Shown: positions 814-7,313, counted from the stretch's first letter. The stretch is DNA of 14,030 nucleotides from a virus (IMGVR_UViG_2565956629_000003); one strand, 5' to 3'. Made by a program: numbers and translations. Notes: generated by a model not told the origin, from the sequence alone.

Positions 814-861
814 ACGGGTCCTCCCGGTGGGGTGGCCTGCCACGGGGCGGGAGCGTCGCGG
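814..861. other. cos site: cosQ-like element (814-829) and cosN with predicted 12-nt cohesive end GGGCGGGAGCGT (845-856)
   Basis: ACGGGTCCTCCCGGTG ... ACG GGGCGGGAGCGT CGCGG closely resembles the lambda cos junction as I recall it (ACGGGTCCTTTCCGGTG...TTACG GGGCGGCGACCT CGCGGG). It lies about 170 bp upstream of the terminase small-subunit start, as in lambda. Confidence 0.55.
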
Positions 862-874
862 AAAAAGGCTAGTT

Positions 875-977
875 TTTGCATTTTTATTGGCCACCATCAT
901 CTTTGCATCTTATTGATTATTAATGGTTATTTGTTTTTTGCATGTCGAATTGAGTGTTTTTTGTTCGACATCGAACG
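875..977. repeat. putative cosB: three direct TTTGCAT repeats and an 8-bp inverted repeat in an AT-rich tract
   Basis: TTTGCAT at 875-881, 902-908 and 937-943. Perfect inverted repeat ATGTCGAA (942-949) / TTCGACAT (964-971). Position between cosN and the small terminase gene mirrors the R3-I1-R2-R1 layout of lambda cosB. Confidence 0.35.
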
Positions 978-1030
978 CGTTTTCTTAAAGTTGTTCGCAC
1001 GATGCATGTTTAAAGCTCTCCGGAGGAAAT

Positions 1031-1522
1031 ATGGATCATGAGTTGAAAAACCTGGTGCTGAATATTAATCAACTGGCGGCTTTATCTGGTCTGCACCGCC
1101 AGACTGTCGTGGCAAGACTGAAAAACATTCGTCCCGCTGGTGGACATGACAAACTCAAGCTATACCGGTTGACCGATATTCTGACTGAATTTATGGGGTT
1201 ACCACCGCCGGTTGCTGAGGGCGAAATGGATCCACATGAACGCAAAGCCTGGTATCAGTCTGAACGTGAGCGTCTTAAGTTCGAACAGGAAACGGCACAA
1301 CTCATTCCGGCCAGTGATGTCAGACGGGAGTTTGCCATCTGGGCAAAAGCGGTCGTGCAGGTGCTGGAGACATTACCGGATATTCTTGAACGTGACTGCG
1401 GTCTGCAGCCTGCCGCTGTGAGCCGTGTTCAGTTCATTATTGATGATCTGCGCGATCAGATAGCCCTGCGGGTGACTGAAGCAGGTGCGGATGATGAGGA
1501 GGAATTACAGCAGGAGGAGTAA
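1031..1522 (+). CDS. terminase small subunit (N-terminal HTH DNA-binding region, acidic C-terminus)
   Basis: ATG at 1031 preceded by GGAGG (1022-1026). Stop TAA overlaps the large-subunit ATG (TAATG). 163 aa; N-terminal segment NINQLAALSGLHRQTVVARLKN looks like a helix-turn-helix; acidic tail DDEEELQQEE. Sits immediately downstream of cos and upstream of the large terminase. Confidence 0.8.
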   Translation: MDHELKNLVLNINQLAALSGLHRQTVVARLKNIRPAGGHDKLKLYRLTDILTEFMGLPPPVAEGEMDPHERKAWYQSERERLKFEQETAQLIPASDVRREFAIWAKAVVQVLETLPDILERDCGLQPAAVSRVQFIIDDLRDQIALRVTEAGADDEEELQQEE

Positions 1523-3624
1523 TGCTGAATCAGGAAACCGCAAAGGCAGCACGAACCGATTCAGGTTATATCCTTCGAGCACCGAGACGAATGCGGGTTG
1601 CTGATGCCGTTGCTCAGTATATGCGGGTGCCCATGGGGGCAGGGAACTCAGTCCCGTGGGATCCGCTGGTGGCACCGTATGTTATTGAGCCGATGAACTG
1701 CCTGGCCTCGCGTGAATACGACGCAGTGATATTTGTTGGCCCGGCACGAACCGGCAAGACTATCGGCCTGATTGACGGCTGGGTGATTTACAACGTGATT
1801 TGCGATCCTGCTGATATGCTGATCATTCAGATGACGGAGGAAAAAGCCCGCGAACACTCCAAAAAACGACTCGCCAGAACGTTTCGCGTCAGCCCGGAAG
1901 TGGTCAGTCGCCTGAGTCCGAACAAAAATGACAACAACGTTTATGACAGAACATTCCTTGCTGGCAACTACCTGAAAATCGGCTGGCCGTCAGTCAATAT
2001 CATGTCCTCATCAGATTATAAATGCGTCGCGCTGACGGATTATGACCGTTTTCCGGAAGATATTGATGGCGAGGGGGATGCCTTCTCTCTTGCCTCAAAA
2101 CGTACCACCACATTTATGTCCAGCGGTATGACGCTGGTGGAGAGTTCCCCCGGCAGGGATGTGAAGGATGTGAAATGGCGACGGACTTCACCGCATGAGG
2201 CTCCACCAACCACGGGGATCCTGTCGCTCTATAACCGTGGTGATCGCCGTCGCTGGTACTGGCCCTGTCCACACTGTGGTGAGTATTTTCAGCCCTGCGG
2301 CGATGTGGTTGCTGGTTTCCGTGATATTGCCGATCCCGTGCTGGCAAGTGAGGCGGCTTATATTCAGTGTCCTTCCTGTTCAGGACGGATTATGCCTGAA
2401 CAAAAACGTGAGCTGAACGGACGTGGGGTCTGGTTGCGGGATGGTGAATCCATCAATGCGGATGGCAGTCGTTATGGTGATCCCCGACGCTCACGTATTG
2501 CGTCATTCTGGATGGAGGGTCCGGCAGCTGCTTACCAGACACTCTCGCAACTCGTTTACAAACTGCTTACTGCAGAACAGGAATACGAGACAACCGGAAG
2601 TGAAGAAACACTCAAGACGGTTATCAATACCGACTGGGGATTACCTTATCTTCCCCGCGCCAGCATGGAGCAACGAAAAAGTGAACTGCTTGAGCAGCGG
2701 GCAGAGCCAGTTCTTTCCCGCAGTGTGCCGGATGGCGTTAATTTCCTTGTGGCGACAGTGGATGTGCAGGCGGGACGTCATCGCCGTTTTGTGGTTCAGG
2801 TAACGGGCTATGGCAGCCGTGGCGAACGCTGGATTATTGATCGTTACAACATCACGCAGTCATTGCGCGGTGACAGCGACGGGGAGAGCCAGCGAATTGA
2901 TCCGGCCAGCTATCCGGAAGACTGGGATGTCCTGCTGACGGATGTTTTTCATAAAAGCTGGCCGCTGGCCTCCAATCCTTCTCAACAAATGCGACTGATG
3001 GCAATGGCGGTGGACTCCGGCGGTGAAGACGGGGTCACTGATAATGCCTATAAATTCTGGCGTCGTTGCCGTCGTGATGGCCTTGGTAAACGTATTTACC
3101 TGTTTAAGGGCGACAGCATCCGGCGCGCAAAACTGATCACCCGTACATTCCCTGATAACACCGGACGAACGGGCCGACGGGCGCAGGCCGCAGGTGATGT
3201 GCCGCTCTGGCTTCTTCAGACGGATGCCCTGAAAGACCGGGTGAATAACGCGTTATGGCGTGACTCGCCAGGTCCCGGCTATGTGCATTTCCCTGACTGG
3301 CTGGGGAGCTGGTTTTACGACGAACTGACGTATGAAGAGCGGAGCAGTGACGGGAAATGGAGTAAGCCGGGGCGCGGTGCCAACGAAGCTTTTGACCTGA
3401 TGGTGTATGCCGAGGCTCTGGTCATTCTGCATGGATACGAAAAGATCCGCTGGCCGGATGCACCGGAGTGGGCGAGCCGGGAAACCTGGCTGGAGTGTGT
3501 CCCGGACAGTACCGAACCGTCACCCACACCGGAACCTGTATCCACGCCTGTTAAAAAACAAAAACGGAAGAAAACAGTAACTGACGATGTTAACCCCTGG
3601 CTGACTTCCGGAGGATGGTTATGA
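1522..3624 (+). CDS. terminase large subunit (lambda gpA family)
   Basis: 700-aa ORF. P-loop GPARTGKT (about 1737-1760). Cys motifs CPHCGEYF and CPSCSG comparable to lambda gpA CPHCGEE. Synteny with small terminase upstream and gpW/portal downstream. Confidence 0.93.
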   Translation: MLNQETAKAARTDSGYILRAPRRMRVADAVAQYMRVPMGAGNSVPWDPLVAPYVIEPMNCLASREYDAVIFVGPARTGKTIGLIDGWVIYNVICDPADMLIIQMTEEKAREHSKKRLARTFRVSPEVVSRLSPNKNDNNVYDRTFLAGNYLKIGWPSVNIMSSSDYKCVALTDYDRFPEDIDGEGDAFSLASKRTTTFMSSGMTLVESSPGRDVKDVKWRRTSPHEAPPTTGILSLYNRGDRRRWYWPCPHCGEYFQPCGDVVAGFRDIADPVLASEAAYIQCPSCSGRIMPEQKRELNGRGVWLRDGESINADGSRYGDPRRSRIASFWMEGPAAAYQTLSQLVYKLLTAEQEYETTGSEETLKTVINTDWGLPYLPRASMEQRKSELLEQRAEPVLSRSVPDGVNFLVATVDVQAGRHRRFVVQVTGYGSRGERWIIDRYNITQSLRGDSDGESQRIDPASYPEDWDVLLTDVFHKSWPLASNPSQQMRLMAMAVDSGGEDGVTDNAYKFWRRCRRDGLGKRIYLFKGDSIRRAKLITRTFPDNTGRTGRRAQAAGDVPLWLLQTDALKDRVNNALWRDSPGPGYVHFPDWLGSWFYDELTYEERSSDGKWSKPGRGANEAFDLMVYAEALVILHGYEKIRWPDAPEWASRETWLECVPDSTEPSPTPEPVSTPVKKQKRKKTVTDDVNPWLTSGGWL

Positions 3625-3833: not shown

Positions 3834-5341
3834 TGGCAATTCTTGATGATGTGATTGGCGTTTTTTCACCAGGATGGAAAGCGGCAAGGCTGCGTTCCCG
3901 TGCGGTGATCCAGGCTTATGAGGCCGTAAAAACGACGCGGACACACAAAGCCCGGCGGGAAAACCGAACTGCCGACCAGTTAAGCCAGTACGGGGCCGTG
4001 TCGTTACGTGAGCAGGCCCGTTACCTTGATAACAACCACGATCTGGTTATTGGTGTATTTGACAAGCTGGAAGAACGGGTGGTGGGGAAAAACGGGATTA
4101 TTGTCGAGCCACATCCGGTATTACGCAATGGGGCCATTGCCCGTGACCTGGCTGCGGAGATTCGCACCCGATGGAGTGAATGGTCTGTCAGCCCGGAAGT
4201 CACCGGGCAGTTTACCCGTCCGATGCTGGAACGTCTGATGCTGCGTACCTGGCTGCGCGATGGTGAGGTGTTTGCCCAGATGGTTTCCGGGCGCATAAAC
4301 AGCCTGACGCCTTCTGCCGGTGTTCATTTCTGGCTGGAGGCGCTCGAGCCGGACTTTATTCCCATGACCAGTGATGAGAGCAACAGGCTGAATCAGGGCG
4401 TGTTTGTTGATGACTGGGGGCGTCCCGAAAAATATCTGGTGTATAAAAGCCGTCCCGTATCCGGACGGCAGATGGAAACCAAAGAAGTGGATGCAGAGCG
4501 AATGCTGCATCTTAAATTTGTTCGCCGTCTGCACCAGATGCGCGGGACGTCTTTGTTGTCCGGTGTGCTGATCCGCCTCAGTGCCCTGAAAGAGTATGAA
4601 GATTCTGAGCTGACTGCAGCAAGGATCGCCGCTGCTCTGGGGATGTACATCCGCAAAGGCGACGGGCAGAGCTATGAACCGGATGGTAATGGCAGCAAGG
4701 ATAAGGAACGCGAGCTTACCATTCAGCCAGGCATTATTTACGACGATCTGAAACCCGGCGAAGAAATCGGAATGGTGAAGTCGGATCGTCCCAATCCTAA
4801 CCTTGAAACTTTTCGTAATGGTCAGTTGCGTGCCGTGGCGGCGGGCAGTCGTCTGAGTTTTTCCAGTACGGCACGCAACTATAACGGTACTTACAGCGCC
4901 CAGCGTCAGGAACTGGTTGAGTCTACTGATGGCTACCTGATCCTGCAGGACTGGTTTATTGGTGCCGTCACCCGCCCGATGTATCGTGCCTGGCTGAAAC
5001 AGGCTGTGGCATCCGGTGTTATCAGGCTACCCCGCGATCTTGACCGTTCTTCACTGTATACCGCGGTGTATTCCGGACCGGTGATGCCGTGGATTGACCC
5101 TGTTAAGGAGGCTGAGGCCTGGAAAATCCAGATTCGTGGTGGAGCGGCGACAGAATCAGACTGGGTACGTGCAGGTGGTCGTAATCCGGATGATGTCAAA
5201 CGTCGGCGCAAGGCCGAAATTGATGAAAACCGCAAGCTGGATCTGGTATTTGATACCGATCCAGCCAGTGATAAAGGAGGCAGCAGTGCCGCAACGAAAC
5301 GACAGGAGCCGCAGCATACCGACGACCAGTCCGAAGAATAA
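3833..5341 (+). CDS. portal protein (lambda gpB family)
   Basis: ATG at 3833 overlaps the upstream stop (TGATG); the longer ORF-track start at 3761 would overlap the upstream gene by 72 nt. About 502 aa, acidic C-terminus. Position between gpW-like and the protease/capsid gene. Confidence 0.88.
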   Translation: MAILDDVIGVFSPGWKAARLRSRAVIQAYEAVKTTRTHKARRENRTADQLSQYGAVSLREQARYLDNNHDLVIGVFDKLEERVVGKNGIIVEPHPVLRNGAIARDLAAEIRTRWSEWSVSPEVTGQFTRPMLERLMLRTWLRDGEVFAQMVSGRINSLTPSAGVHFWLEALEPDFIPMTSDESNRLNQGVFVDDWGRPEKYLVYKSRPVSGRQMETKEVDAERMLHLKFVRRLHQMRGTSLLSGVLIRLSALKEYEDSELTAARIAAALGMYIRKGDGQSYEPDGNGSKDKERELTIQPGIIYDDLKPGEEIGMVKSDRPNPNLETFRNGQLRAVAAGSRLSFSSTARNYNGTYSAQRQELVESTDGYLILQDWFIGAVTRPMYRAWLKQAVASGVIRLPRDLDRSSLYTAVYSGPVMPWIDPVKEAEAWKIQIRGGAATESDWVRAGGRNPDDVKRRRKAEIDENRKLDLVFDTDPASDKGGSSAATKRQEPQHTDDQSEE

Positions 5342-5354
5342 TTCCTGGTTCAGG

Positions 5355-7313
5355 ATGCAGGCTGGTCACCAGAGTGACGCGGATATTTATATTTATGACG
5401 AGATTGGTTTCTGGGGTGTTACAGCGAAGCAGTTTATCAGTGATCTGAATGCACTGGGCGATATCACCCACATTAATCTCCATATTAATTCACCGGGTGG
5501 CGATGTCTTTGAAGGCATCGCCATTTTTAATGCGCTGAAAACACATGGTGCGTCCATTACCGTTTATGTCGACGGTGTGGCGGCGTCAATGGCGTCGGTC
5601 ATTGCGATGGTGGGAAACCCGGTCATTATGCCGGAAAACACCTTCATGATGATTCATAAACCATTTGGCTTTACGGGCGGTGATGCGGAGGACATGCGCA
5701 CCTATGCCGACCTGCTCGATAAGGTTGAGGCGGTTCTGTTACCCGCTTATGCACAGAAAACCGGGAAAACCACCGATGAAATTGCTGCCATGCTGGCGGA
5801 TGAGACCTGGATGTCCGGTGCCGAATGTCTGGCACATGGATTTGCTGATCAGGTAACGCCAGCCGTTAAGGCAATGGCATGTATTCAGTCAAAACGTACA
5901 GAGGAATTTAAAAAGATGCCGGAATCCATTCGAAACATGATTACTCCGCCACGCAACAGTGCTCCACGCGTACAGGATGATGAACCTGCAGCCTCCCGGA
6001 CGCCAGTGCAGGCAGCAGCACCCGTGGTGGATGAAAACAGTATCCGTGCGCAGGTACTGGCAGAGCAAAAAGCGCGTGTAAACGGTATTAATGATCTGTT
6101 TGCCATGTTTGGCGGGCGTTATCAGACGCTGCAGGCTCAGTGTCTTGCCGATCCTGAATGTTCGCTGGAGCGGGCCCGCGAAAAGCTGTTGAACGAGATG
6201 GGGCGCGAGTCCACGCCATCCAATAAAAATACCCCGGCTCATATTTATGCCGGTAACGGTAATTTTGTGGGGGACGGGATCCGCCAGGCGCTGATGGCGC
6301 GTGCCGGATTTGAAAAAACCGAACGTGATAATGTCTACAACGGGATGACCCTGCGTGAATATGCCCGTATGTCACTGACTGAACGGGGTATTGGGGTTTC
6401 CAGTTATAACCCGATGCAGATGGTCGGTGCGGCGTTCACACACAGTACGTCTGACTTCGGTAATATTCTGCTGGATGTTGCGAACAAAGCCATTCTGCAG
6501 GGCTGGGAAGATGCCCCTGAAACCTATGAACAGTGGACGCGGAAAGGTCAGTTGTCTGATTTTAAAATTGCCCATCGTGTGGGTATGGGGGGCTTCAGTG
6601 CTCTGCGTCAGGTGCGTGAAGGGGCGGAATATAAATACGTCACCACCGGAGATAAACAGGCCACTATTGCACTGGCGACCTATGGCGAGCTGTTCAGTAT
6701 CACCCGTCAGGCCATTATCAATGATGATCTGAATATGCTGACCGATGTCCCGATGAAACTGGGCCGTGCGGCGAAATCCACTATTGCCGATCTGGTTTAT
6801 GCCATTCTGACGTCTAACCCGAAAATCTCCACAGATAATGTAAGTCTGTTCGATAAAGCGAAACATGCAAACGTACTGGAGAGCGCTGCAATGGACGTGG
6901 CATCGCTGGATAAAGCCCGCCAGTTGATGCGCGTTCAGAAAGAGGGGGAGCGTCATCTGAATATTCGTCCTGCGTTCGTACTGGTACCGACGGCGATGGA
7001 GTCTGTTGCTAACCAGGTCATTCGCTCCTCAAGTGTCAAGGGGGCTGACATTAACGCCGGTATTATTAACCCGGTGAAAGATTTTGCGACCGTTATTGCA
7101 GAGCCTCGTCTTGATGATAACAGCCAGACCACCTTCTACCTGGCTGCGTCAAAAGGCTCCGATACGATTGAAGTGGCTTATCTCAACGGTGTGGATACGC
7201 CATATATTGATCAGATGGAGGGCTTCAGTGTGGATGGCGTGACAACGAAAGTGCGTATTGACGCCGGTGTCGCGCCAGTTGATCACCGCGGTCTGGTGAA
7301 ATGTACGGCGTAA
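5355..7313 (+). CDS. prohead protease (ClpP/S49 type) - scaffold-like linker - major capsid protein fusion
   Basis: Continuous ORF. N-terminal domain carries ClpP-type motifs GVAASMAS (Ser codon 5586-5588) and MMIHKP (His codon 5655-5657). Middle is an Ala/Pro/Gln-rich linker. C-terminal ~400 aa is capsid-like. Start chosen at the first ATG after the portal stop (5355); the ORF-track start at 5094 would overlap the portal by about 250 nt. Confidence 0.85.
   Translation: MQAGHQSDADIYIYDEIGFWGVTAKQFISDLNALGDITHINLHINSPGGDVFEGIAIFNALKTHGASITVYVDGVAASMASVIAMVGNPVIMPENTFMMIHKPFGFTGGDAEDMRTYADLLDKVEAVLLPAYAQKTGKTTDEIAAMLADETWMSGAECLAHGFADQVTPAVKAMACIQSKRTEEFKKMPESIRNMITPPRNSAPRVQDDEPAASRTPVQAAAPVVDENSIRAQVLAEQKARVNGINDLFAMFGGRYQTLQAQCLADPECSLERAREKLLNEMGRESTPSNKNTPAHIYAGNGNFVGDGIRQALMARAGFEKTERDNVYNGMTLREYARMSLTERGIGVSSYNPMQMVGAAFTHSTSDFGNILLDVANKAILQGWEDAPETYEQWTRKGQLSDFKIAHRVGMGGFSALRQVREGAEYKYVTTGDKQATIALATYGELFSITRQAIINDDLNMLTDVPMKLGRAAKSTIADLVYAILTSNPKISTDNVSLFDKAKHANVLESAAMDVASLDKARQLMRVQKEGERHLNIRPAFVLVPTAMESVANQVIRSSSVKGADINAGIINPVKDFATVIAEPRLDDNSQTTFYLAASKGSDTIEVAYLNGVDTPYIDQMEGFSVDGVTTKVRIDAGVAPVDHRGLVKCTA

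Follow-up and report, generated by a model that had tools for sequence, protein, structure and literature searches.

We consider it likely that the segment at positions 816-1030 is a lambda-type cos site of a lambdoid prophage, which belongs to the Gifsy/Fels-1/cdtI/mEp460 head-gene group and possesses a cosB with the order R3-IHF-R2-R1. Throughout this report, the window means the whole stretch of 14,030 nucleotides that was analyzed. The original prediction of a lambda-like cos was confirmed in this respect: cosQ, cosN and cosB are placed directly upstream of terS and terL. As summarized in Table 1, the region combines the 12-nt end pattern, a cosQ about 30 bp from the nick, the cosB layout and, downstream, terS and a gpA-family terL. 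By analogy with lambda, the gpA-family TerL would nick the two strands of cosN at the positions given in Table 1 and produce 12-nt 5′ ends with the sequence GGGCGGGAGCGT, cosQ would serve packaging termination, and TerS would position TerL. The cosB for this reaction would consist of R3, an IHF bend site, an inverted R2 and R1. The binding of TerS to the R elements and that of IHF to 906-918 are predicted from the covariation described below and from the winged helix-turn-helix fold of TerS. The order of the sequence in 780-1035 is ...CAGGCTGAC GGGTCCT CCCGGTGGGGTGGCCTGCCACG / GGGCGGGAGCGT / CGCGGAAAAAGGCTAGTTTTTGCATTTTTATTGGCCACCATCATCTTTGCATCTTATTGATTATTAATGGTTATTTGTTTTTTGCATGTCGAATTGAGTGTTTTTTGTTCGACATCGAACGCG...GGAGGAAATATG, where slashes mark the predicted nicks.

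Table 1. Elements of the predicted cos site and adjacent terminase genes. Slashes, predicted nicks; bp, distance from the predicted top-strand nick.
Element	Position	Strand	Description
cosQ heptamer GGGTCCT	816-822	+	Packaging-termination element; 7/7 identical to lambda cosQ
cosN core CG/GGGCGGGAGCGT/CG, 16 bp	843-858	.	Predicted nicks 844/845 (top) and 856/857 (bottom)
cosN-proximal conserved block CGCGGAAAAAGGCTAGTTTTTGCATTTTTAT	857-887	+	Includes TTTGCAT copy 1 (875-881); apparently independent of TerS specificity
Candidate R3 CCACCATCATC	~891-901	+	bp 47-57; proposed TerS site nearest cosN; invariant in type A
Candidate I1-equivalent IHF site AATCAATAAGATG	906-918	-	One mismatch to WATCAANNNNTTR; overlaps TTTGCAT copy 2 (902-908)
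Candidate R2 TGCATGTCGAA (top), TTCGACATGCA on the minus strand	939-949	-	Inverted relative to R1; left palindrome arm; overlaps TTTGCAT copy 3 (937-943)
Candidate R1 TGTTCGACATCGAA	962-975	+	Right palindrome arm; invariant in type A
Leader between R1 and terS	976-1030	+	R1-like TTGTTCGCACGATG at 991-1004; ribosome-binding site GGAGG at 1022-1026
terS, small terminase, 163 aa	1031-1522	+	Pfam DUF1441 (PF07278, E 1.5e-43); starts 187 bp right of the predicted nick
TerS winged helix-turn-helix DNA-binding domain, codons 1-58	1031-1204	+	Remainder of TerS is the conserved C-terminal part
terL, large terminase, 700 aa, gpA family (ATPase and endonuclease)	1522-3624	+	Pfam GpA_ATPase 8e-72, GpA_nuclease 5e-85

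The distance from the first base of cosQ to the predicted top-strand nick is 29 bp in the window and 30 bp in lambda. Among 78 IMG/VR relatives, GGGTCCT is kept as cosQ in 71 and the 29-bp distance in 77. The predicted 12-nt 5′ overhang (845-856) is identical to that of lambda (GGGCGGCGACCT) at 8 of 12 positions. The mismatches are at exactly positions 7, 8, 9 and 11, all within bp 7-12, and the expectation of about four differences was therefore correct. The left half of the overhang (GGGCGG) and the nick flanks (ACG/ and /CGCGG) are the same as those in lambda, but the 22-bp spacer between cosQ and cosN is unlike that of lambda. Thus, the idea that cosQ and the flanks of cosN are almost lambda-identical holds for cosQ, the nick flanks and the left half, but not for the spacer. 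The complete junction ACG/GGGCGGGAGCGT/CGCGG was found in 66 of the 78 relatives, with occasional variants at positions 6, 7, 11 and 12; the CG flanks on either side and GGGCGG are conserved. Furthermore, the cos core recurs in hundreds of related loci at a constant distance of 186-187 bp upstream of terS, and it exceeds chance. An inverted repeat around cosN (GGTGGCC/GGCCACC, 831-837/889-895) was also considered and was judged to be a chance occurrence: its left arm varies in close relatives, and the type B loci described below do not have a matching right arm.

In the Pfam scan, DUF1441 was the sole family above the curated cut-off for TerS. HTH_30 was sub-threshold (20.2 bits against a cut-off of 27) and a Nu1-family match was not obtained, so that TerS does not count as a member of the Nu1 family. 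When the proteins were compared by hhalign, TerS residues 9-53 were aligned with residues 2-48 of lambda Nu1 (E 0.0018, probability 15%). When the PDB was searched with a profile of three sequences, only a marginal HTH match was obtained, and the AlphaFold model of TerS residues 1-62 (pLDDT 85) has the order beta-alpha-alpha-beta-beta-alpha. This fold and the profile alignment with Nu1 suggest that TerS works like gpNu1, though it is not a member of the Nu1 family by sequence. TerL is the enzyme expected to nick cosN. Downstream of the terminase genes, there are a lambda-family portal gene and then a fused ClpP protease-capsid gene (CLP_protease and Phage_capsid_4 in one ORF, 5094-7313); on the upstream side, lysis genes are present, namely Rz1 in the window and lysozyme and spanin genes in an E. 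coli genome with an identical cos. A tblastn search with TerS recovered the small terminases of Gifsy-2, Fels-1, cdtI, mEp460 and mEp213. The combination of a DUF1441 TerS, a gpA-type TerL, a portal and a ClpP-capsid fusion is that of the packaging-head module of the Gifsy/Fels-1/cdtI/mEp460 type.

The predicted end coincides with the ends of deposited phage records. The records of cdtI (NC_009514/AB285204) and Tritos (OV696610) start with GGGCGGGAGCGTCGCGGAAAAAGGCTAG, that is, with GGGCGGGAGCGT first, and finish with ...GGGTCCT(T/C)CCGGTGGGG..CCTGCCACG (...CCACG). These records are therefore linearized exactly at the predicted top-strand nick. The record of Hafnia phage yong2, a more distant relative, begins with CGCGGGAAACGGCTAG and ends with ...GGGGCAGCGACA, which corresponds to the homologous bottom-strand nick. 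The ends of the three records are support rather than proof, because they may have been assigned on the model of lambda. In a literature search, a paper on phage Tritos or on the yong2 ends was not found, and the sole match of a full-text search with the 12-mer GGGCGGGAGCGT was an unrelated paper on a mammalian promoter. When viral contigs were scanned for exact matches to the cos junction, physical-end evidence was not obtained: among about 80 listed of at least 120 matching stretches, all were at least 56 nt from the end of the locus. As cdtI and Tritos were deposited with the variant 12-mer as their genome end, this end is not a new one.

Right-half variation of this kind has been described by the Feiss laboratory, who reported frequent differences in bp 7-12 (N15 at positions 9 and 12, Gifsy-1 at 8, 9 and 11), conserved cosQ and CG flanks, and cohesive ends that function in spite of mismatches; Gifsy-1 is listed there among the lambda-like cos phages (PMC4669245). 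The end of phage LLS/mEp213, which has a related small terminase, was inferred as GGGCGGCGCGCT (PMC12315714). By comparison, the predicted end in the window is one more right-half cosN variant, with one substitution (position 7) relative to the reported Gifsy-1 end. The cos site is an ordinary one of a very common E. coli prophage family. Of 5426 complete E. coli genomes, 2167 contain a match to the region 805-1035, with 100% identity in several; a match of at least 95% was observed in 532 records, and at least 80% of the query was covered in 1417 genomes. In the plaque-forming phages PhiR40.1, R47.1 and R55.1, the region is 99.3% identical, and these phages (PhiR40_1, R47_1 and R55_1) have been used live in infection experiments. 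In public annotation, the site is left unmarked. For a prophage family that is found in a large share of E. coli genomes, the present assignment places the likely genome ends at 845 and 856.

The TerS proteins of close relatives are divided into types A, B and C, which are near-identical from residue ~60 onward and differ in the first ~58 amino acids. Type A, to which the window belongs, was sampled as 37 loci with the TerS N-terminal domain of the window, and these gave 22 distinct cos sequences. The stretch that begins at the nick is common to these types: bp 1-32 are 100% identical across types A, B and C. The cosN-proximal block (bp 13-43) is invariant in the 22 type-A sequences and is found again, as CGCGGrAAAmGGCTAGTTTTtGCATTTtAT, in genera whose R classes are unrelated. 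Beyond this block, the candidate IHF site has to be read with the looseness of the consensus in mind, since 14 kb of sequence would be expected to contain 8.6 sites with one mismatch. The arms of the palindrome ATGTCGAA/TTCGACAT occupy 942-949/964-971 and are separated by 14 nt. The reverse complement of R2 matches R1 at 8 of 9 positions, and R3, which is degenerate, matches R1 at just 6 of 9 in the window. R3 is our weakest assignment; its exact limits are uncertain, and we place it by its position and by the cross-locus pattern. The leader between R1 and terS is 76-78% identical across types A, B and C, and it is missing in relatives with a short architecture, in which R1 abuts the terS ATG. 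An 8-bp perfect inverted repeat appeared in 13% of shuffles, and some 7-mer was present in three copies in 26% of dinucleotide shuffles of 857-1030. Because of these shuffle rates, the cosB repeats are weak when taken alone, and their meaning comes from comparison with relatives.

For this comparison, 80 IMG/VR loci and 68 loci from other species were collected with the small terminase as a probe. Across genera, the geometry measured from the nick is constant: the first repeat is at bp ~44-58, the inverted repeat at ~93-105 and the direct repeat at ~117-131. Of 38 distinct cross-genus loci, 29 have a sequence beginning at bp 61-64 that deviates from the IHF consensus YAANNNNTTGATW by no more than one base; the match is perfect in 19, and only two such sequences are located elsewhere in bp 13-130. 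In other classes, the R3 position is occupied by CATCACCAC, CATCATCAT, GTGCAGCAGC or TGTCAGCAGC, in agreement with R1 and R2 of the same locus, and the position homologous to R1 is occupied by TTCATCAC, TTCATCATCATG, GTGCAGyG or TGTCACCTC. Listed as R3, reverse complement of R2 and R1, the repeats are CATCACCAC, TCGACACC and TTCA(T/C)CAC in class 1; CATCATCAT, TTCGACATCG or ATCATCATCAT, and TTCATCATCATG in class 2; GTGCAGCAGC, TTGCAGCAAA and GTGCAGCG in class 3; and TGTCAGCAGCAGGT, TTGTCACCTCA and again TTGTCACCTCA in class 4.

The agreement among the three elements was evaluated by a permutation test, in which the best 9-mer match within the same locus was compared with that between different loci for the 38 distinct cross-genus loci (windows: R3, bp 42-60; reverse complement of R2, bp 90-110; R1, bp 113-135). 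The test takes related loci as independent, so that its counts are not true probabilities; read in this way, R3 and R1 gave 7.53 in the same locus and 6.56 in different loci, the reverse complement of R2 and R1 gave 7.18 and 6.31, and R3 and the reverse complement of R2 gave 6.66 and 6.19, and in each of the three comparisons 0 of 5000 permutations reached the same-locus value, whereas the two controls were null (R3 against forward-strand R2, 5.37 and 5.46, 4271 of 5000 permutations; R3 against the cosN-proximal block, 5.16 and 5.32, 4938 of 5000). The contrast with the controls is clear, and R3, R2 and R1 change in concert within loci.

These results bear on two other explanations of the cosB sequence. 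One of them, which was part of the original prediction, is that three TTTGCAT direct repeats and the palindrome constitute a novel recognition set for TerS that replaces lambda-type R elements. The repeats and the palindrome are indeed all in the sequence, with minor adjustments of their coordinates: TTTGCAT is present at 875-881, 902-908 and 937-943, always on the plus strand, and three exact copies within 69 bp are not trivial, given that a triplicate 7-mer other than a low-complexity one was observed in 1.7% of the local shuffles. In addition, copy 2 is near the R3-equivalent distance from cosN. However, copies 2 and 3 vary among the 22 cos sequences, all of which have one TerS DNA-binding domain in common. 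In several of these, TTTACAT, TTTTCAT or CTTGTAT stands in the place of copy 2, and most have TTTGTAT as copy 3, the GCAT of the window (its C) being a minority state. Copy 1 is invariant in type A, but it is also conserved in loci of other TerS/R classes, so that it cannot confer specificity. In the same sequences, GGCCACCATCATC and TTCGACAT are invariant and ATGTCGAA is kept in 21 of 22. The TTTGCAT copies therefore seem incidental, copy 1 lying in the specificity-independent block, copy 2 over the IHF site and copy 3 over the edge of R2, and a TTTGCAT-based recognition set is very improbable in our view. What stands of the claim of a distinct repeat set is that the cosB sequence differs from that of lambda; the TTTGCAT copies 2 and 3, which vary within type A, do not belong to it. 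The statement that these sequences are present rather than lambda-type R elements was not upheld, because the palindrome arms correspond to an R2/R1 pair, which is inverted in lambda too, and because an R3 position and an IHF consensus are found between cosN and R2.

The palindrome at 942-971 could also be a hairpin in DNA or RNA, such as a terminator or another structure, instead of a pair of protein sites. Its arms are perfect over 8 bp, and a weak terminator-like pattern at 962-977 is followed by CGTTTTCTT. The predicted fold is only -6 kcal/mol (z = -1.0), however, and 32 of 200 shuffles fold as well; the Rfam scan gave no match above threshold (one sub-threshold chance match). Moreover, in other classes the arms vary in step with R3, which is 45 bp away beyond the IHF site, and this fits recognition by a protein and not a local stem. 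A terminator here would also block late transcription into the head genes. A hairpin as the reason for the palindrome is thus very unlikely. A promoter scan of the region found no promoter-like site. Two further readings were considered. The cos could be a non-functional relic of a cryptic prophage, with the divergent end produced by decay. In fact, the window is prophage-like, an Rz pseudogene is present just upstream in an E. coli genome with an identical cos, and some relatives have a mutated cosQ (GGCTCCT). Decay is nevertheless unlikely, because the 12-mer and its flanks are conserved as described above and because live phages have the same site: the 99.3%-identical phages were propagated and used in infection assays, and cdtI and Tritos, with the same cosN, were deposited as phages. 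Long, intact ORFs for terS, terL, portal, capsid and tape-measure proteins also follow the cos. Lastly, the ends might not be 12-nt 5′ overhangs at the lambda-equivalent positions but have another stagger or result from headful packaging. The break in the record of mEp460_4F5 is 5 nt to the left of the predicted nick, 3 nt are missing in this region, and the rotational symmetry of the 16-bp core is 8/16 as compared with 10/16 in lambda. On the other side, the CG flanks and GGGCGG are conserved, TerL is of the gpA family, and three independent records are linearized at one or the other predicted nick. We regard such different ends as highly improbable.

The window was further compared with type B loci. 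The two agree at 94-100% of positions in the flanks, cosQ, cosN and bp 1-32. The identity falls to 56-57% in cosB (877-979), 78% in the leader (980-1030) and 73% in terS codons 1-58 (1031-1204), and in the remainder of terS and in terL it is again 97-100%. Thus, cosB together with terS codons 1-58 (877-1204) forms a discrete swapped specificity cassette inside near-identical flanks, which starts inside TTTGCAT copy 1. The recognition helix of TerS goes with the class of R elements: GVHRQT was found with CACCAC, (D/G)LHRQT with CATCAT/TCGACATCG, NRN(M/L)V with GCAGCAGC and NRGTV with GTCAGC/GTCACC. The helix of the window, GLHRQTVVARL, goes with CATCATC/TCGACAT elements. Tentatively, at slightly less than even chances, 877-1204 may be one of at least four interchangeable cassettes (A, B, C and cdtI-type) on one E. 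coli prophage backbone of cosQ, cosN and TerL, in which type A (R = TTCGACAT, helix LHRQTVVARL) would be distinct, would not cross-package with type B and would not yet have been characterized. If this is true, the cassettes form a natural, finely graded series for dissecting how small terminases read their sites. The swapped cassettes are ready natural variants for tests of terminase recognition and cross-packaging, including possible satellite piracy. The present picture of lambda-like packaging is unchanged by these findings.

The identical stretch from cosQ through cosN to bp 32 is paired with four cosB/TerS types: A (window), B (mEp460-like), C (L051) and cdtI-type. The TerL of cdtI is 88% identical to that of the window overall and almost identical in the C-terminal half, from about residue 380, and the TerS proteins of the two are 42% identical. 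Since one end and a near-identical TerL nuclease domain occur with at least four cosB/TerS types, the cohesive-end variant goes with the large subunit and not with the small one. Therefore, the proposal of a distinct packaging specificity matched to the small terminase needs to be divided: cosB is paired with the N-terminal domain of TerS as one cassette, but the 12-mer, which is the same across the four types, is not matched to the small terminase and alone says nothing about packaging specificity. In other words, the cohesive-end sequence travels with the large terminase in the Gifsy/Fels-1/cdtI/mEp460 group.

Compared with lambda, the window has the same order of cosQ, cosN and cosB and nearly the same spacing, with the terS ATG at bp 187 (191 in lambda). 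In lambda, R2 and R1 are likewise an inverted pair (GGAAACGACAG ... CTGTCGTTTCC), and the IHF site is likewise between R3 and R2. The R sequences are, however, unrelated (TTCGACAT type in the window and CGTTTCC type in lambda), and the IHF and R elements are nearer to cosN in the window, R2 being at bp ~95 instead of ~107 and R1 at ~118 instead of ~151. The TerL of the window is in the same family as lambda gpA with 25% identity, whereas TerS is a DUF1441 protein outside the Nu1 family, whose weak profile similarity to Nu1 is in the DNA-binding domain (E 0.0018). cdtI and Tritos have nearly the same sequence as the window in the segment formed by cosQ, spacer and cosN and in the ~33 bp that follow on its right, but their cosB from bp ~33 onward and their TerS (179 aa) differ, with GGCGGCGGCA / TTTTCACCTG as the type of R elements. 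In the type B phages (mEp460, mEp460_4F5, phi458 and 569R4), the C-terminal part of TerS and TerL are, like the flanks, cosQ, cosN and bp 1-32, 94-100% identical to the window and the R3-I1-R2-R1 geometry is the same, whereas the cassette 877-1204 is 56-78% identical. The R elements of type B are TCATCACCAC / GGTGTCGA / TTCATCAC, and its TerS recognition helix is VHRQTAAARL instead of LHRQTVVARL.

The Salmonella phages Gifsy-1 and Fels-1 share with the window a TerS of the DUF1441 type, a head of the Gifsy type and cosN variants in the right half, to which the window adds the change from C to G at position 7. The R3-I1-R2-R1 layout of Gifsy-1 has been described by the Feiss laboratory. Fels-1 has the end CACG/GGGCGGCAGCGG/CGCGG, AAGGTACTCC in the place of cosQ and R elements of the CATCATCAT type. 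In N15, phi80 and 21, the 12-nt 5′ ends start with GGGCGGCG as in the window, and the specificity comes from cosB and the N-terminus of TerS and not from cosN. These three phages possess Nu1-family TerS proteins, N15 has a single R3, and their ends differ from that of lambda at 0-2 positions, as compared with four in the window.

The window differs from its relatives of the mEp460-like type (type B) in one block, which comprises cosB and terS codons 1-58, the DNA-binding domain of the small terminase. Identity to these relatives is 56-78% within the block and 94-100% in its flanks, and the edges of the block are sharp. This sharply bounded divergence inside nearly identical flanks indicates that a putative specificity module was exchanged by recombination. 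The coordinates are collected in the table below.

Coordinates of the features in the window and of the related locus in E. coli
Feature	Coordinates	Description
Inverted repeat, left arm	831-837	GGTGGCC
Divergent block	877-1204	cosB and terS codons 1-58
Inverted repeat, right arm	889-895	GGCCACC
Leader	976-1030	about 55 bp between R1 and the terS ATG
R1-like segment	991-1004	TTGTTCGCACGATG
Long ORF	5094-7313	ClpP-type protease domain joined to capsid domain
L159, E. coli RefSeq genome	NZ_CP043181, 2936592-2939822	cos 100% identical to the window

The inverted repeat GGTGGCC/GGCCACC lies around cosN. Because its left arm differs from one close relative to another and its right arm is absent from type B, we judged it to be a chance occurrence.

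Relatives in other genera lack the leader; in them R1, a candidate TerS site, adjoins the terS start codon or extends into it (GTTCATCATCATG). The leader of the window contains TTGTTCGCACGATG, which is similar to R1 (TTGTTCGACATCGA). The leader segment may represent either an additional, fourth R-like element or the remnant of a duplication.

At the position of cosQ, we compared the related loci L087-L153 over the stretch that lies 20-45 bp to the left of their nick position. GGGTCC(T) was found in 20 loci, and AAGGTACTCC took its place in 21 loci as well as in Fels-1 (L161) and Gifsy-2 (L160). Because published work on lambda-like cos sites describes no apparent natural variation in cosQ, AAGGTACTCC may be an alternative termination signal. 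A smaller change, GGCTCCT for GGGTCCT, was present in 7 of the 78 IMG/VR relatives (L008, L010, L023, L026, L027, L028 and L040), in which the rest of cos is identical. These loci may belong to prophages defective in packaging termination, or GGCTCCT may be a tolerated cosQ variant.

The record of mEp460_4F5 (LR595868; L085/L086) is opened at a point 5 nt to the left of the predicted nick, and the cohesive end has lost 3 nt at its right edge (GGGCGGGAGCG-CGG). This break and loss probably arose as an artefact when physical DNA ends were assembled, which hints that the real ends lie here. In Gifsy-2, CACGGGTGGCTTCGGGCTCGCGG is found at the position of cosN upstream of terS, and 14 bp instead of 12 separate the CG flanks. 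By its sequence, the Gifsy-2 cosN would be either divergent or defective.

The long ORF of the window has the fused prohead protease-coat arrangement described for Gifsy-2-type heads. In L159, the annotation treats the i-spanin Rz gene directly upstream of cos as a truncated pseudogene and leaves the roughly 640 bp containing cos without any annotated feature.
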